Shown here: piece after piece, positions 31,060 through 50,719 of the stretch
Position numbering within the stretch: position 1 is the stretch's first letter
How the letters are laid out: every line of letters begins with the position of its first letter
NCBI GenBank assembly: GCA_963766885.1
Contig: CAVYBO010000001.1
Location: forward strand, 4,352 to 68,351
Length of the DNA: 64,000 bases
Source of the DNA: an uncultured bacterium
Lineage (GTDB): Bacteria; Patescibacteriota; Minisyncoccia; Phycocordibacterales; CAIRYW01
Direction: 5' to 3'
Notes under the pieces: generated by a model
The model's input: only the letters and a program-made list of their open reading frames with translations
Databases searched by the model: none
Told to the model about the DNA's origin: nothing
Program-made: the position numbers and the translations under genes

Positions 31060-31133
31060 GGCGACTATAGTTTAGTGGTAAAACTCCGGTTTGTGGAACC
31101 GGTATCGAGAGTCCGATTCTCTCTAGTCGCCCA
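31060..31133 (+). tRNA. tRNA-His (anticodon GTG) with encoded G-1; its 3' end is the anchor and core sequence of the downstream cassette array
   Basis: G-1 plus gcgacta acceptor, anticodon arm ccggt-ttGTGga-accgg, T-arm gagag-tccgatt-ctctc, 3' tagtcgc-c-ca. Confidence 0.85.
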
Positions 31134-31199
31134 TCAATGATTTTCTCCAATAAAGCCTTATACCGCTTAGACTTTTCAGTTCTAACCTGTTAGAGTTTT
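31134..31199 (+). repeat. Head type a' (copy 1 of 3): native-like flank directly after the tRNA-His 3' end
   Basis: tcaatgattttc...cttagacttttcagttctaacctgttagag; recurs at 41620 and 50035 right after a GTCGCCCA core. Confidence 0.6.
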
Positions 31200-31202
31200 G
31201 GT

Positions 31203-31898
31203 ATGGAAAGACCAGAAACAACTTTATTTATGCTGATGTCAGTGGACGGCAAAATTTCTACTGGTGATACAGATGAAATGGATGTAGATAAAGACTATCC
31301 TAAAATCACTGGTCTCAAGGAAGGACTCAAGCAGTATTACGATTTAGAGCAACAGACGGATTTGTTTTCTCTCAATACTGGTCGTGTGTTTGCAAAAATT
31401 GGTGTAAACGAAAAAACTGACGAGCCTGTTAAGTTACCAGTAAGTTTTGTAGTGATAGATAATCAACCTCATCTTACCGAGCAAGGAGTTTCATATTTAG
31501 CGAAGAAAGCAAAAAGCCTTATTATCGTAACAACAAATAAAGCTCATCCAGCATTTTCAGTAAAGGGGGGTTATAGAAATATTGAAATAATTTTTTACGA
31601 AAAAGAAATCAATTTTAGTGATTTGTTCCAAAAATTGAGAAAAGAATATAAAGTTGAAAAACTTACTATTCAATCTGGAGGAACTTTAAATACAACTCTT
31701 GTTAGGGAGGGGTTGGTAGATAGAGTTTTGTTGATAGTTGCTCCTGCATTTGTCGGAGGAAGAAATACATCTACTTTATTGGATGGCGAATCGCTCCATA
31801 CAAAGCGAGAATTGTTTAAAATAAAATCAATGGAACTTATACAAGCGAAACCACTTGAAAATAACTATTTGCTTTTGGAGTATAAGCTTAATAAATAG
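31203..31898 (+). CDS. Dihydrofolate-reductase-like (RibD C-terminal domain family) protein; unit 1 cargo
   Basis: FMLMSVDGKIS...IIVTTNKA...QSGGTLNTTLVREGLVDRVLLIVAP. Confidence 0.6.
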   Translation: MERPETTLFMLMSVDGKISTGDTDEMDVDKDYPKITGLKEGLKQYYDLEQQTDLFSLNTGRVFAKIGVNEKTDEPVKLPVSFVVIDNQPHLTEQGVSYLAKKAKSLIIVTTNKAHPAFSVKGGYRNIEIIFYEKEINFSDLFQKLRKEYKVEKLTIQSGGTLNTTLVREGLVDRVLLIVAPAFVGGRNTSTLLDGESLHTKRELFKIKSMELIQAKPLENNYLLLEYKLNK

Positions 31899-31924
31899 TG
31901 GATTGAGGTGTAGGGTAAAATACA

Positions 31925-31991
31925 GGAATATAAATACTTGCATCATTTAACCTCTCAAAAACAGTTCTAACATCCTCTACTACGTCGCCCA
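31925..31991 (+). repeat. Tail repeat L (unit 1)
   Basis: ggaatataaata...cagttctaacatcctctactacgtcgccca. Confidence 0.7.
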
Positions 31992-32042
31992 GAAAATAAA
32001 ATGTTGTGTTATTATTTTATATTATAATTATCAAATAAAATT

Positions 32043-32339
32043 ATGACTGAAAACAAAACAGAAATTGCTGAAGACAAAATTGAATGGCAAGGACAAGTAG
32101 AAAATGTTAATGCTTCAGAATTAAAAGCTGGGGTCATATACATTGATAGGAATAAAGCTAATTTTTCAGGTCCAGAAACAGAACGAAAACTAAAAATTGT
32201 GGAAATGAATTTACTGAGTGAAGAGAATGGTTATAAGTATTATGAGTTAGTTGCTGAGACCGAAGATGGTAAAACTGTTCATCCAAAAATTGGCTTCAAC
32301 GCAGAGACTTCTTTTGATGTAATTAGAAAAACTGATTAA
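32043..32339 (+). CDS. Hypothetical protein; unit 2 cargo
   Basis: 98-aa ORF. Confidence 0.4.
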   Translation: MTENKTEIAEDKIEWQGQVENVNASELKAGVIYIDRNKANFSGPETERKLKIVEMNLLSEENGYKYYELVAETEDGKTVHPKIGFNAETSFDVIRKTD

Positions 32340-32376
32340 CTGGGAAGTAGTGAATTATAGAGTAGGGTAAAAGCTC

Positions 32377-32504
32377 GGAATATAAATACTCGTATCACCC
32401 AATCTCTCAAAAACAGTTCTAACATCCTCTACTACGTCGCCCAGAATTTTTAGCCTTATATTTTAATAATATTTTCGGATGGGTCTAAAGAGAATCGGAC
32501 TTTT
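32377..32504 (+). repeat. Tail L (unit 2) plus spacer plus head R (unit 3)
   Basis: ...ctactacgtcgccca-gaatttttagccttatattttaataatattttcggat-gggtctaaagagaatcggactttt. Confidence 0.7.
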
Positions 32505-32520
32505 GATATACTTTTGTTAT

Positions 32521-33303
32521 ATGAATGAAAATATAAAAAAAGAAAAAACAACTGAAAAAACTGGTGAAGAGATTTTTTTTGAAATCCATAAAGATATTCC
32601 AAGACAAGGTCCTGGAAACGAAGAGTCAACAAAAAAGGCATTTTCTTTGCTTTCAGGTTTACCTTCAGAACCTGCTATTTTAGATGTGGGGTCTGGACCA
32701 GGATTGCAGACAATAGAATTAGCAAGGTTGAGCGGTGGAAATATAACGGCTTTGGATTACCATCAGGAATTTTTGGATGAGTTAAATTTGAACGCATCCA
32801 AAGCTGGTTTAGGAGAACATATTAAGGAAACCAAAGGTTCAATGTTTGAAATGCCATTTGGTGAAAATAATTTTGATGTTATCTGGTCAGAAGGAGCAAT
32901 CTACATTATTGGTTTTGAGAAAGGATTAAAAGAATGGAAGCCTTTTATTAAAGATGGCGGTTATATGGTCGCATCTCATATTTCTTGGCTTAAAAAAGAT
33001 GTGTCTGAAAAACCGAGAGCTTTTTGGGAAAAAAACTATCCAGCAATAGACACAGTTGAGAACAATCTACAAATTGCACAAAGTGTAGGTTATAACAACA
33101 TCGGACACTTCACCTTGCCAGAAGCGGGATGGTGGGACGGCTACTACGGACCTATGGAAGAAAATCTGAAAAGATTAAGAGTAGAACATCAGGGTAATGA
33201 ATCGGCTTTGGCAAAGATTGCGAGCACCCAAGAAGAAATTGACCTGTATAGAAATTTTGCTGATTGCTACGGATATGTTTTTTATGTTTTGCAAAAGAAC
33301 TAG
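32521..33303 (+). CDS. Class I SAM-dependent methyltransferase; unit 3 cargo. Start placed at MNEN; the ORF-track start at 32479 lies inside the repeat
   Basis: Motif I ILDVGSGPG; post-I acidic residue; methyltransferase type 11/12 pattern. Confidence 0.7.
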   Translation: MNENIKKEKTTEKTGEEIFFEIHKDIPRQGPGNEESTKKAFSLLSGLPSEPAILDVGSGPGLQTIELARLSGGNITALDYHQEFLDELNLNASKAGLGEHIKETKGSMFEMPFGENNFDVIWSEGAIYIIGFEKGLKEWKPFIKDGGYMVASHISWLKKDVSEKPRAFWEKNYPAIDTVENNLQIAQSVGYNNIGHFTLPEAGWWDGYYGPMEENLKRLRVEHQGNESALAKIASTQEEIDLYRNFADCYGYVFYVLQKN

Positions 33304-33333
33304 ACCAAAGACTCAAGGTTGGGGTAAAAGCTC

Positions 33334-33462
33334 GGAATATAGATTGTTGCATCACCCAATCTCTCAAAAACAGTTCTAACATCCTCTACTACGTCGCCCA
33401 GCATTTTTTGAGCCCTATTTTTAAGTGTATTTTCTTATGGGTCTAAAGAGAATCGGACTTTT
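33334..33462 (+). repeat. Tail L (unit 3) plus spacer plus head R (unit 4)
   Basis: Spacer identical to the copy at 34461-34522. Confidence 0.7.
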
Positions 33463-33477
33463 GGTATACTTTAGGCT

Positions 33478-33726
33478 ATGAAAAAATATTTAACTCTAAA
33501 CAATGTTTTTCAAGTCTGTTTGGTTTTCTTTACTGTATTAGGATTTTTGCTTACAGGACTAAAAAACCCTAAATGGGGTTTGATTTTTAATCTTATAGCA
33601 GAAGTCTTTTGGGTATACTCTTCTTATAGAGCTTGGAAAGAAGCCAAACAGATAGGAATATTTATTACTACTATAATCATTACAGCCGTATTGCTTTATG
33701 GAGTATTTAATTACTGGTTTCTTTAA
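33478..33726 (+). CDS. Small two-TM protein; unit 4
   Basis: 82-aa ORF. Confidence 0.3.
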   Translation: MKKYLTLNNVFQVCLVFFTVLGFLLTGLKNPKWGLIFNLIAEVFWVYSSYRAWKEAKQIGIFITTIIITAVLLYGVFNYWFL

Positions 33727-33741
33727 AAACCAATTTATTTC

Positions 33742-34332
33742 CTACAAAGAAAACAATAGCTTGGTAGCCTCATATTGTGGTCTTACTTCTTCTCTAATAT
33801 CATCAAAGAATATTTTTCTGTTGAAATCTTTTTCTATTTTAGATAAGACCCATTTTTTGAAAGCATAATAATTTCCATCATCATTTTTACCCCAGTGTTG
33901 CCAGCAAAAGAAAGTATAGAAATCTGATTGAAAATGAGCAATTGAATCTGCTGTTGCAAGAACCTTGCCTTCAAGTGTTGTTGGTAAAATTTCCTTACAG
34001 CTGTGCGGAAGAATAATTTCATAAATTATGAAATCAGTTTCCTTCTGACTAAATTTTGTCTTTTCAAGAAGTTCACGGGCAATTCCAATACTTCTTTTCT
34101 CGTGATTTTCTTCAGAGCGTAGCATAACTGCGTCGGCTATATCGTGAAGCAGAGCACCAGCAACAACTTGTTCCACATCAGCATTCTTTTCTTTAGCAAT
34201 TCTTTCAGCGTTTTTTACCACGACTAAAAGATGATTCGGATAGCCCCAGAAATTCCAATAATCAGCACTTTCAAGATTAGACTTGTAGAGCTTTTCTACT
34301 TCTTGTTTTAGATTGTTTAATCTTGCTGTCAT
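33742..34332 (-). CDS. HD-domain phosphohydrolase; unit 4, antisense to the array
   Basis: H...HD motif LLHDIADAV; 196 aa. Confidence 0.65.
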   Translation of the reverse strand: MTARLNNLKQEVEKLYKSNLESADYWNFWGYPNHLLVVVKNAERIAKEKNADVEQVVAGALLHDIADAVMLRSEENHEKRSIGIARELLEKTKFSQKETDFIIYEIILPHSCKEILPTTLEGKVLATADSIAHFQSDFYTFFCWQHWGKNDDGNYYAFKKWVLSKIEKDFNRKIFFDDIREEVRPQYEATKLLFSL

Positions 34333-34393
34333 CTATTCATTTTATCGTAAATGTTGCTATCAAGCATTATATTCAGAGATGTGATGAAATGTT

Positions 34394-34522
34394 GGAATAT
34401 AGATTGTCGCATCATTTAACCCTTCAAAAACAGTTCTAACATCCTCTACTACGTCGCCCAGCATTTTTTGAGCCCTATTTTTAAGTGTATTTTCTTATGG
34501 GTCTAAAGAGAATCGGACTTTT
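34394..34522 (+). repeat. Tail L (unit 4) plus spacer plus head R (unit 5)
   Basis: ggaatatagattgtcgcatcatttaacccttcaaaaacagttctaacatcctctactacgtcgccca ... gggtctaaagagaatcggactttt. Confidence 0.7.
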
Positions 34523-34610
34523 AAAATAATCCTTTTGTTTATATCTATGTGTAATTGGATTAAACATAACTCAAACCTAGTTGTGATTTTATTGTTATAA
34601 TTCTAACTAT

Positions 34611-36443
34611 ATGAAAAATTATAATCCTGAATTATTAGAAGGAAATAATGGAGAAAGGACCGAAGAAAAACCTGAAGAAATCACTAATAATGAAACCCTA
34701 GAACCACAAGATAATCACTCGGAATTAGTAGATTTCAGTAAAAGATATTCTCGTGCTGGACGCAAAGAAATTGCTGATGAGATTCGGGAATTACGCTTTC
34801 AATATTTCAAAAAAGAAAAGGGAAATCCAGAACGCCAGGAGACTATTGCTGGCCAAGAAAAAAGCATCGAGGCACTTCAAAAAGAAAAGGATTTGATAGA
34901 AGAAGAAATCAGAGCCTTAGAAGATGAGGTAGAGCAGCAAAAGGCTAGCCTGTGGCATAAGATTTCATCTATGTTCCGCAAGAACGAGATAGAGCAAGAA
35001 TTACAGCTTGACCCCAAGAAAAAGAAACTTGAAGATTTAAAAAAAGATATTGAAGGCAGACTTAAAATAATTGGAGAGACGGAGAGCGTAATTTTAGATA
35101 TATCTTCTCTTGATGAAGCTAAGACTAAATTGGCGGAATTTTACAAAGAACAATCGGATTTAAAATCTTCTTTTGAAAGCGAAGAAAAAGAGCGTGATAT
35201 TGAAACCCTGTCAAAAGATAAAGGATATATTTTTCTACACGGCATTCCTACAAAAAATAGGAATATGAACAACACTGCTGAAAACAATCCAGCAATGAAA
35301 ACTAGCGGAATGAGCACTGAAGATAAACTCTCTTTGCTGATGGGATTAGAGCCAACTGTTTCAGCTTCAGTATTAAAAGAGGGTCAACAAGACGCACAAA
35401 CGTATTATACTTTCGGTGTCATTCTTGGTGGAGGTAAAGTATTAAGTGCATATAAAGAAGATTCAGGCACATTGGCTGAGAGTTTGTACAGTCGAAGGTC
35501 AAAATATGATAGAGAAACTAAACAAACAAGCATTCAACCAAATATTACTGCTCATTTAGATGAAGCTGTAAACGCACCTGTAGAATCAAGAAATTGGGGA
35601 AAATACAATGAAATTGTTGTAGAGCAACCAAAAGTGGCTGGATTATATATTAATTTATCCCAACTTAATAATAATTATGACCGAATTGGGATTGGCGAAC
35701 TGAAAAGATATTCTGAGATAATGAATTTGCCAATATACGCCTTAAAAGACGGAGAAATATATCCATTTGATATTGATAGCAAAATTGGTGTGATGGATGA
35801 CGGCAGAAAATATCAAAAAGAAAATGCATTTGAGGCAGAGGGAAATAAACTTTCGCTTGATAATGTAATTGATAGCCGAAGAGAAATTGGTCAGGAAGAA
35901 AAGCTGAAGTTGGCAACTTCAGTTATAGAGAAAAATCCTTTTCAGATTAGCACCGATGGAGAATATGAACTTTATAACGCTTACTCAAGAGGAACTTACG
36001 GTATATATAATTACAGAAAAGGATACGATAATCTTTTAATGGAACAAGAGCTTCATAAGAAAAGAATAGCAGCTGGTATTGAAGAAAGTGACCCAGGAAC
36101 ACCAGAGGATGTTCTCAAAAAAATGGAAGAGCGGTTGGAAGAATTAAAACAAAGAATTGCAGATGCTACCTCCAATGAAGGTAAAAATTTTACCAATAGA
36201 GACCTTAAAAAAGAACTGATTTCTTTATATGGTTTTGCACTTAACGCACAAGAAAACGGAGATGCAAAAACTTTTGATGCAGCCAAAAATATGATTGAAA
36301 AATACGGCTCGTTTGATGAATGTGCGAATTTAATTAAAAAACGAGTAGACGAAAAAGGAGATTTCAAAACATTAGATACAGATGTGCCGATTGAGATAAG
36401 AAAAAAGATGTCAGAATTAGAAGGGGTTAGTTCTGTTACTTAA
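34611..36443 (+). CDS. Large hypothetical protein with N-terminal coiled coil; unit 5 cargo
   Basis: 610-aa ORF, no recognisable catalytic motif. Confidence 0.5.
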   Translation: MKNYNPELLEGNNGERTEEKPEEITNNETLEPQDNHSELVDFSKRYSRAGRKEIADEIRELRFQYFKKEKGNPERQETIAGQEKSIEALQKEKDLIEEEIRALEDEVEQQKASLWHKISSMFRKNEIEQELQLDPKKKKLEDLKKDIEGRLKIIGETESVILDISSLDEAKTKLAEFYKEQSDLKSSFESEEKERDIETLSKDKGYIFLHGIPTKNRNMNNTAENNPAMKTSGMSTEDKLSLLMGLEPTVSASVLKEGQQDAQTYYTFGVILGGGKVLSAYKEDSGTLAESLYSRRSKYDRETKQTSIQPNITAHLDEAVNAPVESRNWGKYNEIVVEQPKVAGLYINLSQLNNNYDRIGIGELKRYSEIMNLPIYALKDGEIYPFDIDSKIGVMDDGRKYQKENAFEAEGNKLSLDNVIDSRREIGQEEKLKLATSVIEKNPFQISTDGEYELYNAYSRGTYGIYNYRKGYDNLLMEQELHKKRIAAGIEESDPGTPEDVLKKMEERLEELKQRIADATSNEGKNFTNRDLKKELISLYGFALNAQENGDAKTFDAAKNMIEKYGSFDECANLIKKRVDEKGDFKTLDTDVPIEIRKKMSELEGVSSVT

Positions 36444-36477
36444 TTTTATGAGATTTGTCCTTTAGGAAAGAATGTCG

Positions 36478-36606
36478 GAATATAGATTGTCGCATCATTT
36501 AATCTCTCAAAAATAGTTCTAACATCCTCTACTACGTCGCCCACGGTTTTTAAGCCTTATAAAATAGGTGTGATTTGGGTGGGGGTCTAAAGAGAATCGG
36601 ACTTTG
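36478..36606 (+). repeat. Tail L (unit 5) plus variant spacer plus head R (unit 6)
   Basis: ...cgtcgccca-cggtttttaagccttataaaataggtgtgatttgggtgg-gggtctaaagagaatcggacttt. Confidence 0.7.
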
Positions 36607-36619
36607 TTATACTAAATGA

Positions 36620-37174
36620 ATGTATGAAGTAGAATCCAAAGTTGAGATTACAGATAAAGAAAAGGAAAATCTTATTACCTTATTTAAGGAGAAAAATTTT
36701 CCATTTAAAGGTACTACTCCACAGAACGATTTTTATACTGAAGCCAGAGAATCACCACACGGTAGTTATGACGTGAAAAGATACAGGGAAGAAGGCGACA
36801 AATTTATATACACAGAAAAAATATGGGAAGTGGTAGATAATAATCCAGTAAGAAAAGAAACTGAACACGAAGTTTCTAAGAATGAATTTGCATCAGCGAT
36901 TGCTCAATTTCCTAATGCCGTAAAGATAAAGAAGCAAAGAGACTGGTTTGCCGCTAATTACCAAAATACTGACATAAGTCTAACTATAGACACTGTAAAA
37001 TTTGACCACTCTCCAAACACGAGATATTTTATTGAAGCAGAAATAGATGTTCAAGACAAGAAAGATGTCAAGAAATTCAAAGACATCATTATCCAATTCC
37101 TCAAAGAATTATTGAACAAATCGGAAATCATTGAAGCTCCAGGGATGTTTACGATGGCGTTTAAAAAACAATAA
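36620..37174 (+). CDS. CYTH-domain (triphosphate tunnel metalloenzyme; CyaB/ThTPase-like) protein; unit 6
   Basis: N-terminal ExExK signature MYEVESK; size and acidic residues consistent with CYTH. Confidence 0.55.
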   Translation: MYEVESKVEITDKEKENLITLFKEKNFPFKGTTPQNDFYTEARESPHGSYDVKRYREEGDKFIYTEKIWEVVDNNPVRKETEHEVSKNEFASAIAQFPNAVKIKKQRDWFAANYQNTDISLTIDTVKFDHSPNTRYFIEAEIDVQDKKDVKKFKDIIIQFLKELLNKSEIIEAPGMFTMAFKKQ

Positions 37175-37177
37175 ATT

Positions 37178-37633
37178 ATGCGAACCATAGAAAGAAAAAT
37201 TGCTACAGCTGTAATATTTTCAGCAGACGGAAAAATATTTCAAGGCCAGAAAGACCCATCAAAAGGAGGTGTATATAGAGATGGTTATTGGCACATTCCT
37301 GGAGGTGGAATAGAAGAAGGAGAAACGGTAGAACAAGCTTTAATAAGAGAAATAAAAGAAGAAACTGGTATTGATGTATCAAATATTAAAGCTATCTTGA
37401 TTGACGATAAAGGTGAAGGGGAATCAGAAAGAACTTTGGCAAACGGAGAAAAAGTAATTGCCAAAATGAAATTCTACGTATACAAAATTGTCTTGCCAAC
37501 AAACACGGAAGATACAGAAATTCACCTTAACGATGATTTGGTTAAATATAGATGGACTGACCCAAAAGAACTTAAAAACATAAAGCTAACTCCTCCTTCT
37601 GTAGAGTTGTTTACAAAGATGGGGTACCTTTAA
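37178..37633 (+). CDS. NUDIX hydrolase; unit 6, 4 nt after the CYTH gene
   Basis: Nudix box GGGIEEGETVEQALIREIKEETGI. Confidence 0.7.
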   Translation: MRTIERKIATAVIFSADGKIFQGQKDPSKGGVYRDGYWHIPGGGIEEGETVEQALIREIKEETGIDVSNIKAILIDDKGEGESERTLANGEKVIAKMKFYVYKIVLPTNTEDTEIHLNDDLVKYRWTDPKELKNIKLTPPSVELFTKMGYL

Positions 37634-37650
37634 TGGTTGTGCAAAATGTC

Positions 37651-37762
37651 GGAATATAAATTGTCGCATCATTCAAACTCTCAAAAATAGTCCTAACATC
37701 CTCTACTACGTCGCCCACTGTTATATTAAGCTAACGTTAGTGGGCAGTAATATTTCTTTTTC
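37651..37762 (+). repeat. Tail L (unit 6) followed by head type H (hairpin gcccact-N19-agtgggc)
   Basis: Same L+H junction recurs at 47884-48080. Confidence 0.65.
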
Positions 37763-37945
37763 TGACTTTGGTATCTGCTGTTAGCCTGATTCATAACCAG
37801 CAGATATTGACTAAATAAAATATTTCAGTAAGCTATACATACAAATGAAAACAACATTTTCAATTGCAAATAACCATCATACAGCTCTTACTTCAAGAGC
37901 TGGTGTTTGCCGTTGTTAATTTCTCTCTAAGAATTTCACAAAAGT

Positions 37946-39139: not shown

Positions 39140-39143
39140 ATTT

Positions 39144-43698: not shown

Positions 43699-46600
43699 GA
43701 TATATAAAGAGTTTAAAATCGATAGTAGTATTTTATTTTCTTTTTATACTACTTGTTTCTTTTGGGTGTATTTTACAACCTTCGACAGCTCATGCTGATA
43801 CGGGACTGGTTGCAGAATGGACTATGGATGATGGGTCAGGAAATATTGCATCTGATTCGTCTGGAAACGGAAATGATCTTGATATAAACGGCAGCGCCAC
43901 ATGGGTGGCAGGTAAAATTCTTGGCGCACTTTCTTTTGATGGCAGTAGTAATTACGCGCACGACGATTCAACATTTAATACTACGCCATCTTCTACCATG
44001 AGCTTGTGTGGCTGGATAAAGACCTCGTCTCCTACAGCTCAGACTATTCTCAGTTTCGGGCGTAATCCAGGTAATTTTACCAACGAGGGTATTTTTAGTG
44101 TTTTGGCCAGCGGGTCAATTCAATTTTGGGACTACAGTAATGGCGGTGGTGGTTTAGGTTTTTCGAGCAGCGCTTCTGGCAGTACGGGCATAGTCGATGA
44201 TGGAAACTGGCATTCGGTATGTTTTGTCAAAAATAATACCGCAGGCACCTATTATATTGATGGAGTAGAAAGTGGTATCACGACTGCAGCAACGAACGTA
44301 GCTTATGACAATACCGACTGGACATTAGGAAAAGATTATCGCGACAACGATAACTATTTCGATGGTCTCATGGACGATATGCGCGTCTACGACATCGCAT
44401 TATCATCCAGTCAGGTCTACTTGCTTTATGGAATAGAGGGCTATTGGAAGTTTGATGAGGGGTCAGGTACGGTAGCCAATGATTCTTCAGGAAATAATAA
44501 TACAGGCACAATTGTAGGTGATCCTACGTGGACAACAGGAAAAGTAGGATATGCTCTTAATTTTGGAAATAATCAATATGTGAGCATTGCTGGTACGCCA
44601 ATTTCTACAGCGATTGCTTCTAGTAGTCAGATGACAGCGACCGCATGGGTATATGCAAATTCTGCCACACCGTGGGGTACCATCATAAAAGATTGGCCAG
44701 ATTATTCGGGCAATGACCAGTTCCATCTGGGCTTTGAAGGAACTACGACTAAAATTTCTGCATATATTGAACAAAGCAATGGCACTATTATTGGTCCTGT
44801 GGAAAGCACGAGCACCTTACCGCTCAATAGTTGGCACCTCGTTGCTATGACTGCAAACGGAAGTTCAACTCTTCTTTATATAGACGGAACGGTGGTTGCT
44901 TCGAGTACGTATGATGGAACCTTGCACCAAGGTGGAAATTATATCGGCATTGGTGCAAAGCTCGATGACACAGGTTTACCAAATGCAGATAACCCAGGTT
45001 ATTTTGATGGAAAGATAGATGATGTTCATCTGTATGATAAAGGACTTTTGCCTGATGATATTCTCACTCTTATGGAAGCTCCACCTGCTCAAGTATCGAA
45101 CCTTCAGGCAACAGGAACATATGCGGGCGGTTTCTCTCTGACGTGGGATCCAAACCCTGTGGGCGATAATGTCACGAATTATGTAATCCAATATTCTACA
45201 GATGGGGGTAATTCTTGGACTCCCGTCGATACTAATTCTAACAGCACAAGCTATGAGTTGAGCGGTATTGGTCCCGGGGACTATCTTTTTCAAGTCAAAG
45301 CCGTCAATACTGTAGGACAGGGTCTACCGTCTACTCAAGTGGAGATCAATTCACCAGCCATTACTTACACGCTGGGTAATGATTGTCTTGCTTTGGAACA
45401 TATTACGACTAATCCGGGCGATGCATATGGGCACTACATTATGTCCTCGAACATTGACTGCTCAGTTGTTCCGAATTTTTCACCGATCAATTTTTCTGTC
45501 TCAGGTTTTGGCGGCACATTTGATGGTGCGGGTCATACGATCACCAATCTCACCATCAGCACCTCAACTATTCAGAATGTTGGATTGTTTAGCCAAATTC
45601 AAAATAGCGGTACTGTAGAAAATCTAACACTTACGAATACCAATGTCACGAGCGGCGAAGCATATTCTGGAATTTTGGCTGGCTATAACAATGGTACTCT
45701 CCAAAATATCTCGGTCTCGGGCACCTCAACTGGTGTGTATGCTGTCGGAGGTCTTGTGGGACAAAACGATGCGCTTGGGGTTATTTCTACCTCAAGTGCT
45801 GATGTGTACGTCATTGCTGATAATAATAGTGGAAATGGAAATGTGGAAGAAGTTGGAGGCTTTGCTGGAGAGAGCGAGGGATCGATCAATGGTTCCCATT
45901 CATTAGGGACAGTTACCAATGCGACGGGTTCTGAAGATTTTTATTATGTGGGAGGCTTTGCTGGCTTTCAGGGTGGTGACTTCACCGATGACTATGCTAC
46001 AGGGCCGATTATCGTAAACGCTGACTCTTCAGGAGAGTCGGATTATATCGGAGGTTTTGTGGGGTATGCCGGCAGTGCCGGATCCATAGATCATTCTTAT
46101 GCTACTGGAAATATCACTGATCCAGATGATTATGTTTATGAGATCGGTGGTTTTGTGGGGGAGTCGAGGGCTCCTCTTAGTGATGATTATGCGACGGGTA
46201 ATATATACGACGATAATGATAGTAACGTCGGCGATTCCTTCTATCTCGGTGGCTTTGCCGGTGGGAGCGATGCGGGTGCGATAAGTAATTGTTATGAGAC
46301 AGGCTCCATCACCATAGCTTTTCCTCAAGATTTTTATTATGTGGGAGGCTTTGCAGGATATACTGAGAATGACGAAATCAGCCAGTCCTACAGCACTGGC
46401 AATGCAGAAGGCAACGAAGCTGTCGCTGGTTTTTCAGGATATAATGAGGCCCTACTTTCTCAGGTCTATTCAAGTGGTAATGTCGTTATGTTTGGAAGTG
46501 GTCCGACATATGCTGGTGGTCTTGTGGCCGACAATGAGGGTGATATAAACGATGCTTTTTCCACAGGCAATATAAGTCTAGATAGCGGAGTGACGGGTAG

Positions 46601-47801
46601 TCCGACAGCGATTGGCGGACTGATCGGTAACAATTCTGATGCAAATATAAATCGAGCATATGCTTCTGGTGATATATCTGCTGGAACAAATAGTTCTTAT
46701 GTTGGTGGCCTCGTCGGGGCAGACTATCAGAATGGTAATGGTATAACAAATTCATATTCAGTCGGTACGGTAAGTGGAGGTACTGACGTTGGAGGATTGA
46801 TTGGCTTTGAATCTATTCAAAGTGCCGGCAATCCTTCATATACCGATTTGGCTTGGTACACTGGGTCGGCTAGCGATGTTGTCGGAGATTTTCTGAGTAA
46901 TAACGGCTCTACGGACAACGGTCCTATATTAAATCTTACTACTGGCGGCTATGGTACCGATGAGAATATAATATCGAATTTCTATGACACCACTGAACCA
47001 GTTTATGCGCAGGGTCAGATGGGTGCATGGGATTTCAGCTCGATTTGGGAATCCCATAAGAATACTTTTCCAACCTTTCAGTGGTTTAGCGCAGCCACTT
47101 ACACTATAACTGCAAGTGCAGGAACTGGTGGTGTCATAAGCAATGAGGGGAGTCTGTCGGTTTTAGATGGTTCAAACCAAAGTTACAATATTACTACGGA
47201 TAACGGTTACACCATTGCAGACGTACTTGTGGACGGTTTGTCTGTTGGTGCTGTTTCTAGTTATACATTCTCAAATATTAGTGCATCACACACCATCTCA
47301 GTAACTTTCTCTGCGATTTTGTCACCGAATGTTTCTCGAAGTGGAGGAAGCGTGCAAAGCCAAGTAAATAATTTAAACTCTTTTGGTGATATAGCAGCTG
47401 CTCAGGTTTTGATAAATCAGTACCCGTATCTTTTCAAAGATTCCACAGCGAGTTCTGGTACAGTTAGTTCAATCCAAGCTCAAATCGCACAACTTCAACA
47501 AGAACTAGTTTCTTTTGGAGACAGTACAACAACCACTGCAACCACAACAGAACTTTTAAGCAATGGCCCTGATTTATATTTTGGTTTAAGTAATCACAAG
47601 GTTAATCTACTACAGCAGTTTTTGGTTCTGGAAGATAAGGGGCAAGAAGCCAATGCTCTGGAGAAAAACGGTTTAACAAATTATTTCGGTAAGCTAACAA
47701 GAGCTGCTTTGGCAGAGTTTCAAAAATCAGTAAGTATAAAACCTGCCGCTGGATATTTTGGTCTGAAGACAAAGGCTTACTTGAAATTGTTAGGATATTA
47801 A
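43695..47801 (+). CDS. Giant (1368 aa) secreted surface protein: two LamG/concanavalin-like domains, an FN3 domain, about 15 GLUG-motif repeats, C-terminal peptidoglycan-binding-like domain
   Basis: Signal peptide; ...LSFDGSSNYA/NFGNNQYV (LamG-like); PPAQVSNL...YVIQYSTDGGNSWTPV (FN3); repeated VGGFAG/IGGFVG/VGGLVG; C-terminus resembles PG_binding_1. Confidence 0.6.
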   Translation: MRYIKSLKSIVVFYFLFILLVSFGCILQPSTAHADTGLVAEWTMDDGSGNIASDSSGNGNDLDINGSATWVAGKILGALSFDGSSNYAHDDSTFNTTPSSTMSLCGWIKTSSPTAQTILSFGRNPGNFTNEGIFSVLASGSIQFWDYSNGGGGLGFSSSASGSTGIVDDGNWHSVCFVKNNTAGTYYIDGVESGITTAATNVAYDNTDWTLGKDYRDNDNYFDGLMDDMRVYDIALSSSQVYLLYGIEGYWKFDEGSGTVANDSSGNNNTGTIVGDPTWTTGKVGYALNFGNNQYVSIAGTPISTAIASSSQMTATAWVYANSATPWGTIIKDWPDYSGNDQFHLGFEGTTTKISAYIEQSNGTIIGPVESTSTLPLNSWHLVAMTANGSSTLLYIDGTVVASSTYDGTLHQGGNYIGIGAKLDDTGLPNADNPGYFDGKIDDVHLYDKGLLPDDILTLMEAPPAQVSNLQATGTYAGGFSLTWDPNPVGDNVTNYVIQYSTDGGNSWTPVDTNSNSTSYELSGIGPGDYLFQVKAVNTVGQGLPSTQVEINSPAITYTLGNDCLALEHITTNPGDAYGHYIMSSNIDCSVVPNFSPINFSVSGFGGTFDGAGHTITNLTISTSTIQNVGLFSQIQNSGTVENLTLTNTNVTSGEAYSGILAGYNNGTLQNISVSGTSTGVYAVGGLVGQNDALGVISTSSADVYVIADNNSGNGNVEEVGGFAGESEGSINGSHSLGTVTNATGSEDFYYVGGFAGFQGGDFTDDYATGPIIVNADSSGESDYIGGFVGYAGSAGSIDHSYATGNITDPDDYVYEIGGFVGESRAPLSDDYATGNIYDDNDSNVGDSFYLGGFAGGSDAGAISNCYETGSITIAFPQDFYYVGGFAGYTENDEISQSYSTGNAEGNEAVAGFSGYNEALLSQVYSSGNVVMFGSGPTYAGGLVADNEGDINDAFSTGNISLDSGVTGSPTAIGGLIGNNSDANINRAYASGDISAGTNSSYVGGLVGADYQNGNGITNSYSVGTVSGGTDVGGLIGFESIQSAGNPSYTDLAWYTGSASDVVGDFLSNNGSTDNGPILNLTTGGYGTDENIISNFYDTTEPVYAQGQMGAWDFSSIWESHKNTFPTFQWFSAATYTITASAGTGGVISNEGSLSVLDGSNQSYNITTDNGYTIADVLVDGLSVGAVSSYTFSNISASHTISVTFSAILSPNVSRSGGSVQSQVNNLNSFGDIAAAQVLINQYPYLFKDSTASSGTVSSIQAQIAQLQQELVSFGDSTTTTATTTELLSNGPDLYFGLSNHKVNLLQQFLVLEDKGQEANALEKNGLTNYFGKLTRAALAEFQKSVSIKPAAGYFGLKTKAYLKLLGY

Positions 47802-47883
47802 ACTTTTTAAAATAATGTAATTACTTTCCGGATTACCTGGTTACTGGAGACGAGAAAGGGATTAAACAACACTTGCTATAGTT

Positions 47884-48080
47884 GGAATGTAAATCGTTGT
47901 ATCATCTAACCTCTCAAAAACAGTTCTAACATCCTATCACAAGGGCACTTCTTGCTTACGGCAGTAGCTGATACCCGAGAGCGGTACTAATTCACTATGT
48001 TCATAAGTAAACAAAGTCGTCTACTACGTCGCCCACTGTTATATTAAGCTAACGTTAGTGGGCAGTAATATTTCTTTTTC
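47884..48080 (+). repeat. Tail L (unit 11) interrupted by an 85-nt insertion (47936-48020), followed by head type H (copy 2)
   Basis: cagttctaacatcct | atcacaagggcac...aaagtcgt | ctactacgtcgccca-ctgttatattaagctaacgttagtgggcagtaatatttctttttc. Confidence 0.65.
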
Positions 48081-48167
48081 TAACAATTTTCTATAGAAAT
48101 CTTTAATAATTTTTTTTGTTGATTCTCAATTTACCTGGTGGTAGTATGGCCGAGGTAAATTTGAACT

Positions 48168-49514
48168 ATGAAAAAAATAACCTATCGATATCACCACCGA
48201 GGGGTCGTTACCGGAGGTATTTACCCACCGGACCGATTTCTCTACACGGATCCAAAGACAGGAGAGATCTTGCTTGTGGAAAGGGATGAAACCTACATCA
48301 AGCGGAAAATTGGCACTGGGCGCGACGCACAAAATCATTTCGACGGACTTCGGTTTGGACCGCAGCGTCGGAATTATCCGAACAACTCGGGTGTCTGGCT
48401 CTGGAGGCAATTCATTCTCCCAGGTTTTCCGAAAGAGGCAATTGTCTCCTTGAACGAAGGTCAGACGGATCTTTTCGAGGTTCCCGGCTGGCTGAAAAAG
48501 GAGATTGGTCTCAACAACCTCTTCATCAAGATGGAGGGGCGGTCGCCGAGCGAGAGCTTCAAAGACAGGGGAATGCCTGTGGCGGTGTCGGACGCACTCC
48601 GACTCCAGCTTCTCAATCCGGAACATCCGATCGTCGGAGTGTGTTGTGCTTCCACCGGGGATACTTCGGCTGCGGCGGCAATATATGCTGCTTACTGTCG
48701 GGACAAACTTTCCTGCGTGGTCTTACTTCCGTTTGAGAATATTTCAGACTCGCAACTCTTTCAGGCTATTGCTCACCGCGCCAATGTCATTGCGGTAAAG
48801 CACCCTGACGGTTTTGATGGCTGTATGTATCTCATCAGGGAGTTTCAAAGAGACCATCCGGAATATGTTCTCGTCAACAGCGCGAATGACATGCGCGTCG
48901 TGGGACAGGAGACTATCGGACTCGAGATCATTCAGGACTTGGAGTGGAAGGCTCCGGACTGGATTGCGATTCCCGTCGGTAACGGCGGTAATCTCACTGC
49001 ACTCATGATCGGCCTGCTCCGGGCAAAAGAGTTCGGTCTGATTGATCGTCTGCCGGGCATCATCGCGGCCCAAACCGAATCTGCCGATACTCTGGTGCGC
49101 TGGCAAGGAAGCGGCTATCAGCAGTATCAACCGGGAAAGTTGCAAAAGTCCGTGGCAACCGCCATGAACATCAACGATCCGGTTTCCTTTCCGCGCATCA
49201 AATCTCTTCACGATCAATTCAACATCCACTTCATTGCGGCTGGCGAATTTCAGATCAAGAAAACATGGGCGCGGTTCATGGGAGCGGGTGCAAACATCTG
49301 TCCACAGAGCGCTGTTGCTCTTTCGGCGGTGTTGCAAGCGCGAGCAGTCGGAGTGGTCAAAGAGGACGACATGATCGTTTCAATTTCTACGGCGTCTGGG
49401 ATTAAGTTTTCGGAGGCTGGAATAGCGTGGCACAAGTCTGCTGTTGACGATTCTTGTAACCCATACAAGGTGGTCTCCGGCAATCTGCACGAAATTGAAG
49501 CGGCGCTAAAGTAG
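48168..49514 (+). CDS. Threonine-synthase-like PLP-dependent (fold type II) enzyme; unit 12 cargo, GC about 55%
   Basis: SFKDRG lysine motif at about residue 110; 448 aa; Gly-rich PLP-phosphate loop. Confidence 0.6.
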   Translation: MKKITYRYHHRGVVTGGIYPPDRFLYTDPKTGEILLVERDETYIKRKIGTGRDAQNHFDGLRFGPQRRNYPNNSGVWLWRQFILPGFPKEAIVSLNEGQTDLFEVPGWLKKEIGLNNLFIKMEGRSPSESFKDRGMPVAVSDALRLQLLNPEHPIVGVCCASTGDTSAAAAIYAAYCRDKLSCVVLLPFENISDSQLFQAIAHRANVIAVKHPDGFDGCMYLIREFQRDHPEYVLVNSANDMRVVGQETIGLEIIQDLEWKAPDWIAIPVGNGGNLTALMIGLLRAKEFGLIDRLPGIIAAQTESADTLVRWQGSGYQQYQPGKLQKSVATAMNINDPVSFPRIKSLHDQFNIHFIAAGEFQIKKTWARFMGAGANICPQSAVALSAVLQARAVGVVKEDDMIVSISTASGIKFSEAGIAWHKSAVDDSCNPYKVVSGNLHEIEAALK

Positions 49515-49618
49515 GTAATTGCAAACTCGGTTTGCTGCGCAGATTAAACGCTGCGCAATTTTTATTATTTGAATATTCCTTGTAATTTTAAATGTAAAAT
49601 GTATAGTTTTGTCTGAAT

Positions 49619-49885
49619 ATGAATATAAGCCTTGGAGCACTTTTACGTTCATCCACGGAGGGAAAAGAATCCGTCGAAGTGGCGGGCGGCACTGTCAAGG
49701 AAGCAATCGCCGATCTTAATCGCCAGTTTCCTGGCTTGCAAGATCGCATTTGCAAGGAGGGCAAGATCAGCCGGCACGTCATTTTCTACGTCAATGATGA
49801 GGACATTCGTTTTCTCGATGGCGAGGATACCGTTCTCAAGGAAAGTGACGAGCTTTCCCTTATGGCAGCCGCCGCTGGTGGCTAA
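49619..49885 (+). CDS. ThiS/MoaD-like ubiquitin-fold sulfur-carrier protein ending in Gly-Gly; unit 12
   Basis: 88 aa, C-terminus ...AAAGG; beta-grasp-like pattern. Confidence 0.5.
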   Translation: MNISLGALLRSSTEGKESVEVAGGTVKEAIADLNRQFPGLQDRICKEGKISRHVIFYVNDEDIRFLDGEDTVLKESDELSLMAAAAGG

Positions 49886-49904
49886 AACAATTCTTTATTT
49901 CGAA

Positions 49905-50100
49905 CGAACAACTCGCGATGCAAAGCGAGTATTTTTTTATTTAAAACCCGCAATCAATTTTAATTTTTCTCTCACGCCAGCCATATATTCTTGATCTGAA
50001 AGAATTGTTATAAAAGGGTAACCGTAGTCGCCCATCAATGATTTTTCCTGAAATATCCTTACTAGACTTAGACTTTTCAGTTCTAACCTGTTAGGCTTTT
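49905..50100 (+). repeat. Tail type B (unit 12) followed by head type a' (copy 3 of 3)
   Basis: actcgcgatgcaaagcgagtattttttt...ttataaaagggtaaccgtagtcgccca-tcaatgatttttcc...cttagacttttcagttctaacctgttaggc. Confidence 0.65.
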
Positions 50101-50103
50101 GGT

Positions 50104-50622
50104 ATGAAAAAGATTTACATAACAGGAGTTTCTGGAACTGGTAAAACAACCCTAGCAAAAGAGCTAGAGAAAAAAGGATTTTACACTATCAGCATTGATG
50201 AGGTTGATAATTTATGTTCGTGGGTCAATCAAGAGACTGGTAAGAAGGACGGAGGAAAGAACACAGAACTGACATTGGAGTTCGTAGATAAGCACGACTG
50301 GATTTGTGATATTGAATACTTAAATAAGCTTTTAGATAAAGATGTTGATACGGCATTCGTCTTAGGTATGGCAGGAAATCAAAATGATTTTTTGCATATC
50401 TTTGACAAAATTTTACTCCTACAATGTAGTCCAGAAACTTTTTGTAAAAGAATTGAAAACAGAACTGATAATGAATTTGGTAAAGACCCGAAAATTCAAC
50501 AACAAATTTTAGCTCGTTATAAACCATATGCAGAGGAGATGATAGCAAAGGGTGCGATTTCAATTAACACCGAAAATTCTGTGGATGAGGTTGTTGAGGA
50601 TGTTCTTAAACAAACTATATAA
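50104..50622 (+). CDS. P-loop NTPase / nucleotide-kinase-like protein; unit 13
   Basis: Walker A GVSGTGKTT within the first 20 residues; 172 aa. Confidence 0.5.
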   Translation: MKKIYITGVSGTGKTTLAKELEKKGFYTISIDEVDNLCSWVNQETGKKDGGKNTELTLEFVDKHDWICDIEYLNKLLDKDVDTAFVLGMAGNQNDFLHIFDKILLLQCSPETFCKRIENRTDNEFGKDPKIQQQILARYKPYAEEMIAKGAISINTENSVDEVVEDVLKQTI

Positions 50623-50652
50623 AAGAAAGATTACAAAGATTCGGAAAAAGCT

Positions 50653-50719
50653 GGAATATAAATTGTCGCATCATCTAACCTCTCAAAAACAGTTCTAACA
50701 TCCTCTACTACGTCGCCCA
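50653..50719 (+). repeat. Tail L (unit 13); last repeat of the array
   Basis: ctggaatataaattgtcgcatcatctaacctctcaaaaacagttctaacatcctctactacgtcgccca. Confidence 0.7.

Follow-up and report, generated by a model that had tools for sequence, protein, structure and literature searches.

A tandem cassette array at a tRNA-His gene of a Paceibacterota bacterium points to a large serine recombinase family, rather than an integron, as its builder

The window analysed here, a 64-kb stretch of DNA belonging to a 283,896-nt source contig of an uncultivated, ultra-small Paceibacterota bacterium, carries a tRNA-His(GTG) gene from whose 3' end a 19.6-kb array, cut into 13 units (U1 to U13), extends to position 50719. 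An octamer search located 13 copies of GTCGCCCA from 31126 to 50719, all on the plus strand; 0.69 copies would be expected by chance, and none of 100 shuffles reached 13. One copy is the 3' end of the tRNA itself, so that exact octamers bound 12 units; the thirteenth boundary (43162-43169) has a full tail but a degenerate core, GTCGCCCC. Units are 0.45-4.9 kb long and follow a plan of a head, one or two genes and a convergent tail, the cassettes having their own leaders. Three head types were distinguished, namely H1 (six copies), the hairpin H2 (GCCCACT-N19-AGTGGGC, two copies) and H3 (three copies, one of them directly 3' of tRNA-His), while two units have no recognisable head. Within the H1 head, the last ~24 nt of tRNA-His recur in inverted and degenerate form. 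Tail A is present in ten intact copies and one interrupted by an insert of ~80 nt; the two copies of tail B close the GC-rich hisG and thrC-like/thiS-like units. Most tails contain a minus-strand mini-ORF, as listed below.

About 31061-31133, plus: tRNA-His(GTG) (ARAGORN; Rfam tRNA, 64.7 bits)
31126-31133, plus: GTCGCCCA, last bases of tRNA-His; shared core, proposed left half of attB
31134-31991, plus: U1; H3 head 31134-31190; RibD_C protein 31203-31898 (plus); tail A 31918-31991, mini-ORF 31888-31992 (minus)
31992-32443, plus: U2; head not recognisable; 98-aa hypothetical 32043-32339 (plus); tail A 32370-32443, mini-ORF 32355-32444 (minus)
32444-33400, plus: U3; H1 head 32444-32506 with inverted tRNA-His 3' fragment 32484-32502; SAM methyltransferase 32479/32523-33303 (plus); tail A 33327-33400, mini-ORF 33300-33404 (minus)
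33401-34460, plus: U4; H1 head; 82-aa membrane-like ORF 33478-33726 (plus); HD-domain protein 33742-34332 (minus); tail A 34387-34460, mini-ORF 34360-34464 (minus; annotated in the source record as P0253, 34 aa)
34461-36543, plus: U5; H1 head; 610-aa hypothetical 34611-36443 (plus); tail A 36470-36543, mini-ORF 36446-36544 (minus, GTG start)
36544-37717, plus: U6; variant H1 head; CYTH 36620-37174 (plus); NUDIX 37178-37633 (plus); tail A 37644-37717, mini-ORF 37611-37718 (minus)
37718-39077, plus: U7; H2 hairpin head 37718-37766; structured leader of ~300 nt; HisG 38022-38921 (plus); terminator; tail B ending TAGTCGCCCA, mini-ORF 38980-39081 (minus, peptide MLGDYGYPFITILSDQEYMAGVREKLKLIKSFK)
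39078-40608, plus: U8; H1 head, in which the inverted tRNA fragment matches best (17/17 nt); hypotheticals 39144-39518 and 39613-40263 (both minus); tail A 40535-40608, mini-ORF 40514-40612 (minus; 32-aa gene P0252)
40609-41619, plus: U9; H1 head; hypotheticals 40730-41074 and 41182-41484 (plus); tail A 41546-41619, mini-ORF 41525-41620 (minus, ATG start)
41620-43169, plus: U10; H3 head 41620-41676; hypotheticals 41768-42355 and 42382-43050 (plus); tail A 43096-43169, ending in GTCGCCCC
43170-48035, plus: U11; starts with CAAGAGAGAATTAGTTGAG (43170-43188); 148-aa ORF; 1368-aa LamG/GLUG/fn3 surface protein 43695-47801 (plus); split tail A, 47880-47935 and about 48014-48035, with the ~80-nt insert (about 47936-48016) between
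48036-50034, plus: U12; H2 hairpin head 48036-48084; PALP/ThrC-like protein 48168-49514 (plus); ThiS-like protein 49619-49885 (plus); terminator; tail B, mini-ORF 49937-50035 (minus)
50035-50719, plus: U13; H3 head 50035-50091; AAA_18 P-loop kinase 50104-50622 (plus); tail A 50646-50719 with the last core; unique flank from 50720

The preliminary description of this DNA had reported small cassettes in tandem, most of them co-oriented and all with unrelated cargo, anchored exactly at the tRNA-His 3' end, with a tRNA-derived core common to the junctions, and all of this was borne out, as were the head and tail types and their counts. Its statement that the same octamer closes every unit holds for 12 of the 13 and fails at the boundary with the degenerate core; its account of the H1 head was correct in itself and had missed the inverted tRNA-His copy inside.

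Pfam searches confirmed the miscellaneous nature of the cargo, identifying RibD_C, SAM methyltransferase, HD, CYTH, NUDIX, HisG, PALP/ThrC-like, ThiS and AAA_18 kinase domains together with the 1368-aa LamG/GLUG/fn3 protein; the remaining cargo ORFs had no Pfam match. The GC content of the units lies at 0.32-0.39 except in U7 (0.41), U8 (0.45), U11 (0.42) and U12 (0.48), and that of the flanks is 0.383. Clustered at 90% identity, every protein of the window is a singleton. An independent short-read assembly (Logan ERR11630394, L004) contains a contig identical to window positions 34493-36533, with no mismatches, and breaking within the repeats; this match indicates that the array is not an assembly artefact.

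The comparison with relatives that the preliminary description had proposed revealed both empty sites and different arrays. Four further Paceibacterota lineages (L007, L008, L023-L028 and L032) have tail arrays immediately downstream of tRNA-His, which brings the array lineages to five, that of the window included; these arrays differ in content and have the tail in common. In two relatives, L005 and L010, the tRNA-His site is empty, and L010 is colinear with the window on both sides of it. The tRNA-His 3' end is identical in relatives L005-L010, only CGCCCA of the core is common to the tRNA in all array lineages, and tRNA identity at the junctions spans only 6-10 nt. Copies of the tail are confined to the arrays, none being found elsewhere in the window or at other loci.

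That the array is devoid of a recombinase, as first noted, agrees with the domain scans. No recombinase domain was detected in the main cassette ORFs and flanking ORFs from 27112 to 63193, nor in any ORF of at least 170 aa in positions 1-27000, and PHROGs and PADLOC returned none either for the 17 cargo ORFs, out of 20, that they covered. No large serine recombinase (LSR) or other recombinase was found in the 64-kb window, within 10 kb on either side of the L023 and L032 arrays, or in the shorter stretches examined for L007 and L008.

The tail itself had been described as a conserved repeat, and its coding nature had been missed. The ~75 nt form an open minus-strand frame that starts at the core and encodes (M/L/V)GDVVEDVRTVFERLNDATIYIPxF and reaches a stop a few residues later; the consensus across copies is G[DA]VVE[DE]VRT[VI]FE..ND[AT][TS]IYIPxF. 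This frame was open in all 15 tail copies first examined. Diversity at the three codon positions was 3.32/2.59/7.30 (22 codons, 21 distinct tails), the third position varying most, and codon differences among tails comprised 1072 synonymous versus 1055 non-synonymous ones. The family of sequences with the tail motif includes at least 160 ORFs and 292 representative protein clusters, and in every one of these clusters the motif closes the called ORF at its C-terminus.

In unsplit ORFs the tail peptide directly follows ...NEWFVPIEKAYP..LE.EY.R.EL....RN..FA.LIL.WG, the C-terminal region of LSRs; judged by sequence, this peptide is how large serine recombinases naturally end, and the tail is the displaced 3' end of an LSR gene. 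The link is based on one integrated element (L029) and two short read-through ORFs, P0292 and P0313. The L029 gene at 17703-19325 has Resolvase, Recombinase and Zn_ribbon_recom domains (Pfam) and belongs to an integrated element of ~9 kb, at one end of which the LSR body is cut right after ...LILRWG, while the tail lies at the other end, 7.6 kb away on the same strand; TGGGGT is present at both element junctions. Residues 482-530 of this LSR match residues 6-54 of P0313 with 65% identity (E = 2e-20) and the same WG end, past which P0313 continues with the tail peptide and the L029 gene diverges and stops. The split LSR and the repeated TGGGGT suggest that attP lies within the 3' end of the LSR gene, in which case integration would place the last ~30 codons at the opposite end of the element. 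In the array, U11 starts with CAAGAGAGAATTAGTTGAG; joined to the four C that end the core before it, this stretch agrees at 21 of 23 positions with the LSR codons ..ELILSW in reverse complement, with an in-frame stop, and may be read as a P' remnant. Other observations fit less well: the L029 target is a degenerate tRNA-like fragment and not an intact tRNA-His, which counts against the LSR reading; P0405 aligns weakly (E = 0.007); H3 and the LSR 3' region gave no BLAST alignment, their homology being visible by eye only; and the H1 head, the H2 head and tail B are not accounted for by LSR sequence. By eye, P0369 and P0342 have a similar read-through appearance.

We consider it fairly probable that the island consists of non-autonomous cassettes serially integrated at the tRNA-His 3' end, the proposed catalyst being an LSR family whose genes contain attP within their own 3' ends. 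The overall pattern is, as had been said earlier, the one predicted by repeated site-specific integration. Such an LSR would recombine tail-core-(P') sites either with the end of the tRNA gene (3') or with junctions already in place, and units would accumulate in this way. The 13 units would have kept only the attP part, and could be satellites that depend on an LSR acting in trans from a helper element or from another part of the genome, or else relics that lost their LSR. The tRNA/H3 junction is probably attL, tail/H3 and U10/U11 would be attP-like and tail/H1 attR-like, and H1 may be what is left of the native structured element found after tRNA-His in relatives. Canonical LSRs recombine attP with attB only; serial insertion beside existing junctions would need a Ccr-like permissiveness. 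Neither circles nor single-cassette polymorphism was seen as direct evidence of excision, which counts against this reading, as does the lack of an LSR in the window and in the surroundings examined for the other arrays.

Several alternatives were weighed against serial LSR-catalysed integration. Pure decay, in which the units are eroded LSR-carrying elements that accreted at tRNA-His, immobile and never mobilised as cassettes, would fit tails that are literally recombinase-gene 3' ends, the few LSR codons and in-frame stop at the U10/U11 junction, the tail broken by an insert, the degenerate core and the inverted partial tRNA fragments strewn through the heads; remnant-filled tRNA islands of this sort are described for tycheposons (10.1101/2020.12.28.424599). 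We nevertheless regard it as unlikely, given that none of about 27 tail-bounded units from five lineages contains an LSR body or a recognisable LSR pseudogene, that units are uniformly small (0.45-2 kb in 10 of 13) with a tight plan, and that ten tails here are nearly identical in their last 32 nt and unlike those of other genomes, which is unexpected for relics of differing age. Less probable still is RecA-dependent shuffling, for example after natural transformation, with the tail-core-head segment (130-170 nt) as portable homology and site-specific recombination limited to a founding event. The tails are indeed mosaic and evolve in concert within each genome, the neighbours U4/U5 and U8/U9 have identical head subtypes, PilM/PilN type IV pilus genes occur in the window and a ComEC-type Competence domain in L013; against this, similarity ends sharply at the core where adjoining head or tail types differ, the left side of tRNA/H3 has only 8 nt in common with the tail junctions, and tails A and B join freely with heads H1, H2 and H3 at the core.

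It is very improbable that the mini-ORF is an independent small gene (antitoxin-like or a regulatory peptide) lying between genes, and the arrays not products of recombination at the core. Its codon-level conservation is clear, nine of the 21 distinct tails have a start codon (ATG, GTG or TTG) lying across the core, in four cases the codon is CTG with ATG as the next codon upstream, and in L023 a PemK toxin gene begins within the mini-ORF, the two sharing 4 nt; but the peptide is colinear and continuous with LSR C-termini, a start codon is absent from one tail (TAG, L032) and replaced by GGG in another, and neither the common core nor the location at the 3' end of the tRNA is explained. The overall look, with cassettes of one or two genes and homogeneous 3' repeats, is all that recommends a true integron or CALIN, in which an IntI-type tyrosine recombinase acts on folded attC sites. 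The tail has neither hairpin nor covariation (alifold -0.76 kcal/mol, 0 covarying pairs), and single-strand junctions fold no better than shuffles (A/H1 z = +0.95 to +1.6; only H2 reaches z = -1.5). The R''/R' GTTRRRY-type core is absent, there is no IntI in the 64 kb and the tail codes for part of a serine recombinase. An attC/IntI identity was rejected on these grounds, and as far as sequence analysis goes this explanation is already refuted, with hardly any probability left to it. The integron analogy of the preliminary description is not supported at the level of machinery, where there is no attC-like fold, no IntI beside the tRNA, and leaders belong to the cassettes themselves. Taken together, the evidence points to an LSR family, and not an integron, as builder of this gene-capture array.

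No description of such an array was found in the literature searched; partial likenesses exist to four known systems. SSV1-type (fusellovirus) integrases of Archaea offer a parallel to the gene split proposed here, as their attP is contained in the recombinase ORF, which is divided between both ends of the element once it has entered a tRNA gene; those are tyrosine recombinases of archaeal viruses that leave a short N-terminal fragment, whereas here a bacterial serine recombinase would lose its last ~30 codons. Sedentary chromosomal integrons and CALINs resemble the array in product, being small one- or two-gene cassette arrays without their own recombinase, with miscellaneous or unknown cargo and 3' repeats that are uniform inside one genome but not from one genome to another. 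They differ in their IntI/attI platform, folded attC sites and recombinase superfamily, and the cassettes here have leaders of their own in an array anchored at a tRNA. SCC units are bounded by short direct repeats that copy the end of the target gene, and many of them (psiSCC) lack a recombinase and rely on one in trans. The SCC islands at rlmH/orfX (CcrAB/CcrC) arise, as is proposed for the present array, through large serine recombinases and serial insertion at a single site, where a conserved gene has its 3' end; short-repeat boundaries, recombinase-less units and miscellaneous cargo are further likenesses (examples of composite islands: 10.1101/336396, PMC3900703). Their target is rlmH and their units measure about 10-60 kb, whereas here the target is a tRNA gene in a Paceibacterota (CPR) host, units measure 0.45-4.9 kb, the recombinase was not located in the 64-kb window, and the att site would lie within the recombinase gene, which integration truncates. 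Tycheposons of Prochlorococcus carry cargo into tRNA 3' ends by tyrosine or large serine recombinases, and in their islands newcomers push older elements inward, so that remnants between partial tRNA copies pile up (10.1101/2020.12.28.424599). They have their own integrase, usually replication genes, and flanking partial tRNAs of about 40 nt, in contrast to the recombinase-less units here, with 6-10 nt of tRNA identity and a repeat that is a recombinase gene 3' end. Because the tail corresponds to the 3' end of an LSR gene, the system stands nearer to SCC-type and tycheposon-type composite islands than to integrons, and these two are, on the best reading, its closest analogues.

The array begins at tRNA-His(GTG), located at 31061-31132 of the window and ending in the octamer GTCGCCCA, which is also the core found at the unit boundaries. 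Twelve further copies of this octamer, all on the plus strand, were found out to position 50719, against a chance expectation of 0.69. The preliminary description had every unit ending in the same octamer; this holds for twelve of the 13 units, but not for the boundary at 43162-43169, where a full tail is followed by a core that reads GTCGCCCC instead. The resulting 13 units (U1-U13) range in size from 452 to 4866 nt. An intact tail of ~75 nt (tail A) closes ten of the 13, a further, eleventh tail A is interrupted by an insert of ~80 nt, and two GC-rich units are closed by a different tail of ~115 nt (tail B). The three head classes proposed earlier were recovered, with H1 present six times, H2 twice and H3 three times; no head was recognised in two units. 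H2 and tail B were always paired within one unit, whereas, across the core, tails are joined freely to the heads that come next. A unit is therefore read from head to tail, with the core as its boundary. One window unit was found exactly in an independent short-read assembly, the contig of which is broken within the repeats. By-eye inspection revealed no dif-like dyad at the junctions, and a sigma-70 promoter scan displayed no enrichment compared to shuffled sequences.

The Pfam search agreed with the cargo annotation proposed earlier and also bore out the absence of an integrase: neither Phage_integrase nor any other recombinase was detected among the scanned ORFs of the 64-kb window, namely the main cassette ORFs, the flanking ORFs in 27112-63193 and, within 1-27000, every ORF of 170 aa or more. 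PHROGs and PADLOC searches of the cargo likewise yielded no recombinase and only generic domain similarities. The gene adjoining tRNA-His encodes a methylpurine-DNA glycosylase. To judge from the organisms named for its homologues and from its CPR-typical genes, the window comes from a Candidatus Paceibacterota bacterium.

Relatives were found by scanning metagenomes with the tRNA-His 3' end and then looking up homologues of the flanking genes. Two loci (L005 and L010) contain the same tRNA-His with no repeats after it. In L010, gene order matches that of the window on either side (RluA-L19-NaPi ... FolD-SIMPL-SecE-NusG-L11), and the window array is therefore an insertion. In two other loci, L007 and L008, the tRNA is followed by different cargo and then by tail A homologues ending in CTCTACTACGGCGCCCA. 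Tails are ~80% identical across genomes, as compared to only ~50% for the RluA proteins of the same genomes, and their last 32 nt are nearly invariant inside a genome and different between genomes. The tail profile matched only the window, L007 and L008 arrays and nothing elsewhere. More distant relatives at syntenic loci (L002, L003 and L013-L022) possess a different tRNA-His and no array; a 118-aa presence/absence difference among them proved to be a gene-calling artefact.

Look-ups of tail-peptide homologues led to two more array lineages. In loci L023-L028, three cassettes (encoding a 249-aa protein; a dCMP deaminase; and Ham1p with PemK) lie immediately 3' of tRNA-His, with an H3-like head after each junction; here the tRNA ends in GCCGCCCA and the tails in GTCGCCCA. 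Locus L032 carries at least six tails across 7 kb, again 3' of tRNA-His. A short direct repeat, GTCGCCCA or CGCCCA, was present at all boundaries in the window, L007, L008, L023 and L032, and in five lineages the array begins at the last base of tRNA-His, which is left intact in the window. Across the array lineages, the tRNA and the tails have only CGCCCA in common, which fits a crossover inside these six bases. No recombinase was found within 10 kb of the L023 and L032 arrays or in the shorter L007 and L008 stretches. There were no cargo families common to different arrays, and thus no cassette could be traced between genomes. An exact-match scan with the window tail, too strict a query, returned nothing from metagenome and viral collections; its single match among genome contigs (L001) was a chance one to a GC-rich coding region. 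Phage and plasmid collections gave no match.

The array had been likened to an integron. This likeness stands insofar as the cassettes each possess a single 3' site (tail plus core) and no recombinase in their cargo, but it does not extend to the integrase or to the folding of the site. No IntI-type tyrosine recombinase was identified by Pfam beside the primary site among the scanned ORFs of the window. RNAalifold analysis of ten tails yielded -0.76 kcal/mol and 0 compensatory pairs, i.e. no conserved secondary structure, and single-strand DNA folds of the tail-core-H1 junctions were no better than those of shuffled sequences (z = +0.95 to +1.6); z = -1.5 was attained by the small H2 hairpin alone. 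The attC model was rejected on these folding and covariation results; the tail is conserved at the sequence level, as a coding sequence. The possibility that the tail is a decayed copy of tRNA-His was also considered, as the two ends look alike by eye; an alignment without the octamer was not significant (p about 0.11), and the direct identity to the tRNA at the boundaries amounts to 8-10 nt. A T-box, suggested by UGGG and by complementarity to the acceptor strand, was rejected for want of an Rfam match; at E <= 1, the strong Rfam matches to heads, tails and the structured element 3' of tRNA-His in relatives (module M) were tRNAs only, with a few weak chance matches below gathering thresholds.

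A minus-strand frame opening with the codon N-TG is open in every tail copy examined, its TG being complementary to the CA at the end of the core. In tail A it encodes the peptide [M/L/V]G[DA]VVE[DE]VRT[VI]FE[RK]xND[AV][TS]IYIPxF, followed by 5-12 variable residues and a stop. Seven sources (the window plus six other loci) supplied 21 distinct tails; over 22 codons of these, nucleotide diversity at the first, second and third codon positions was 3.32/2.59/7.30, and half of the codon differences were synonymous. A profile of the peptide matched at least 160 short called ORFs, and an exhaustive search returned 292 representative clusters, the motif always being located at the C-terminal end of the ORF; Pfam had no match to the mini-peptides, and one protein with 14 'matches' (P0371, 698 aa) was discarded as an unrelated tandem-repeat protein. 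Tail B is also coding, with eight synonymous changes in MAGVREKLKLI separating one copy from the other. On the minus strand of 38980-39081 and 49937-50035 it specifies the peptide (M/ML)GDYGYPFITILSDQEYMAGVREKLKLI(KS/AG)FK, which had no Pfam match and no link to the C-terminus of large serine recombinases (LSRs); tail B may have its source in the 3' end of a recombinase gene of a second type. The interrupted tail A is split at 47936-48016 by a structured insert (~75-95 nt) between ..AACATCCT and CTACNACG, inside the mini-ORF codons between VVE and D. Inserts at the same position occur twice in the unrelated lineage L032 (~12896-12970 and ~14092-14190, tRNA orientation), and may be either intron-like or a small mobile element that inserts site-specifically.

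The origin of the tail peptide was indicated by longer proteins. Two search matches, P0292 and P0313, bear an N-terminal extension, ...NEWFVPIEKAYP.LE.EY.R.EL....RN..FA.LILSWG, with the tail peptide directly after it; P0369 and P0342 have a more divergent version of the same extension. On a 790-kb contig (L029) we found a 540-aa protein with Resolvase, Recombinase and Zn_ribbon_recom domains, which ends in ...NDWFVPIEKAYPELEAEYRRLELQKYLSAEARNAAFASLILRWG and then LCRNFVIPII and a stop. Its residues 482-530 are 65% identical to residues 6-54 of P0313 (E = 2e-20), and the match ends at the same WG. The missing continuation, (W)GAVVEDVRTIFEKRNDATIYIPDMQSIAVLG (AVVEDVRT...), is found on the same strand 7.6 kb off, at the opposite end of an element that contains genes for Fic, TrmB, two methyltransferases and an HTH protein. 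TGGGGT is present at both junctions of this element, and joining them restores a full-length LSR gene. Taken together, the split gene in L029 and the unsplit P0292 and P0313 place the attachment site ~30 codons before the stop of the element's own recombinase gene. The tail is thus very probably the 3' end of an LSR gene family, as judged from sequence identity to LSRs of lineages other than that of the window. Within the window, the U10-U11 junction still reads CCCCAAGAGAGAATTAGTTGAG, which agrees at 21/23 positions with ...ELILSWG in reverse complement. H3 heads, read in the frame of the tail peptide, give ...PNRLELKSLSLVRIFQEKSL-MGD, which resembles the LSR segment ...YRRLELQKYLS...LILRWG by eye only; BLAST gave no alignment between H3 and the LSR C-terminus. 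An AlphaFold model of the 85-aa unsplit fragment displayed a helical hairpin (pTM 0.34), too weak for a fold search. The unsplit LSR 3' fragment of P0292 (L031, 723-2359, on a 2.4-kb contig) adjoins an RVT_1 reverse transcriptase gene; an RVT_1 gene is also inserted between rplK and nusG in the relative L003.

The explanation we favour for the array is that an LSR of this family recombines an attP composed of tail, core and P' with the 3' end of tRNA-His, and that repeats of this event stack the units. Each integration would leave the last ~30 codons, i.e. the tail, at the distal end. The window units would have lost, or never had, the LSR body and kept only the att-bearing gene end, and would therefore be either satellites moved in trans or relics. 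The tRNA-H3 junction would then correspond to attL, the tail-H3 and U10-U11 junctions to attP-like internal junctions, and tail-H1 to an attR-like one, the latter because H1 shares the inverted tRNA copy that starts module M. With the anatomy, the coding nature of the tails, their identity with LSR C-termini, one split LSR element and both occupied and empty tRNA-His sites all directly seen, we regard the stacking of LSR-less units at tRNA-His by an LSR family as the probable, though by no means assured, explanation as a whole. Whether units are mobile in trans at the present day is a separate matter, on which we lean slightly to the negative. The model accounts only in part for H1, H2, tail B and module M.

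Within H1, the last 17-24 nt of tRNA-His recur in inverted and degenerate form. In relatives L006-L009, tRNA-His is followed by a terminator hairpin and by the 135-200-nt module M, which starts with an inverted copy of the tRNA end and finishes with a direct one. H1 looks like a truncated left end of module M. Similar structured elements occur directly 3' of, and on the same strand as, tRNA genes for Arg-gcg, Arg-tct, Val, Leu and His, and one copy lies after rplK without a tRNA.

Structured elements 3' of tRNA genes
Window: 10575-10745, 18539-18665 and about 58240-58340
Locus L013: 8949-9130; about 9860-9700 (minus strand)
Locus L011: after tRNA-Val, minus strand
Locus L010: 12489-12700; 9251 onward
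Loci L006-L009: module M

They are made up of a terminator-like hairpin, the acceptor 3' strand in inverted copy, a variable hairpin that shows compensatory changes, the T-arm (likewise inverted), a conserved core (GACCYTTTGAG..CCAAAAGGTGTACWG and NNNCTGTAAGNNN) and, in degenerate form, a direct repeat of the tRNA 3' end, with ends matched to the neighbouring tRNA. The folds are strong, the plus strand always being the more stable, and had no Rfam match. Directly 3' of tRNA-Arg(tct), a low-GC block (18747-21822; 0.30-0.33) encodes a DNA methylase (N6_N4_Mtase) and a TdeIII-type restriction endonuclease, and may be a further insertion linked to a tRNA.

The cargo is miscellaneous and its GC content often foreign. 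It is rich in nucleotide and folate enzymes (RibD_C/DHFR-like, HD, CYTH with NUDIX, and a dNK-like kinase, in U1, U4, U6 and U13), as are the relatives' cassettes in L023 and L032 (Ham1p, dCMP deaminase); the chromosome near the array (58845-63193) already possesses DHFR, thyA, dUTPase and dCTP deaminase genes. Weak PADLOC similarities were seen to mad2, PDC-S07 and VakA, a hint of a defence or nucleotide-pool role. In L023 (10001-10479), a PemK/MazF-family toxin gene with no other antitoxin candidate upstream shares 4 nt at its start with the tail mini-ORF (P0310, 33 aa). The cassette-borne hisG stands alone, with no other his genes in the window; its ~250-nt leader (37767-38021) contains two strong hairpins, one of them terminator-like (AAACGAGCTCTTGTAAGAGCTCGTTT), and had no Rfam match. 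In many cassettes the ATG of the first cargo gene is preceded, at a distance of 6-10 nt, by an extended -10-like motif (TGnTAnnnT).

Extended -10-like motifs in the window
31185-31205
32507-32525
33465-33480
36600-36622
50086-50106

The motif is also present in the H3-like heads of L007 and L008. If these were functional -10 elements, mRNAs driven from the heads would be leaderless or nearly so.

The manner in which CPR/Patescibacteria, with their very small genomes, acquire genes is poorly understood. The data describe tRNA-His as a conserved site of gene capture in five or more lineages, with 292 protein clusters carrying the tail motif, and provide a concrete, testable enzyme candidate, an LSR whose own gene harbours the attachment site in its 3' end. 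The peptide G[DA]VVEDVRTVFE..NDATIYIP may serve as a sequence handle for spotting islands of this kind in metagenomes. As tools for genome integration, LSRs that use short, defined sites are of practical interest, and a family aimed at a conserved tRNA end and tolerating tandem insertion would be worth characterising. A bolder proposal, which we hold to be rather doubtful, is that Paceibacterota carry a serine-recombinase counterpart of the integron, in which a helper LSR acts in trans to move minimal gene cassettes, left with no more than an attP of ~130-170 bp, in and out of the tRNA-His 3' end. If true, the cassette attP would be nothing but the last ~55 codons of a recombinase gene, integration and excision would cut and restore the recombinase C-terminus of the autonomous element as a built-in switch, and the platform would be a main gene-gain route in these tiny genomes.

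No description of this system was found in the literature searched. In machinery it is closest to SCC composite islands, which combine Ccr LSRs, units stacked in tandem at a single gene's 3' end and psiSCC elements devoid of a recombinase. In target it is closest to tycheposon islands, which integrate at a tRNA 3' end and keep the tRNA intact; tycheposons, however, have their own integrase, usually replication genes, and partial tRNA flanks of tens of nt, whereas none of the window units has a recombinase. Sedentary chromosomal integrons are alike in the look of the product. SSV-type integrases share an attP inside the recombinase gene, which is partitioned on integration, but differ from L029 in recombinase class (tyrosine vs. 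serine), so that the resemblance is one of mechanism and not of membership. The array system is not a member of any of these four groups, and we rate it as a variant form of an established kind of element.
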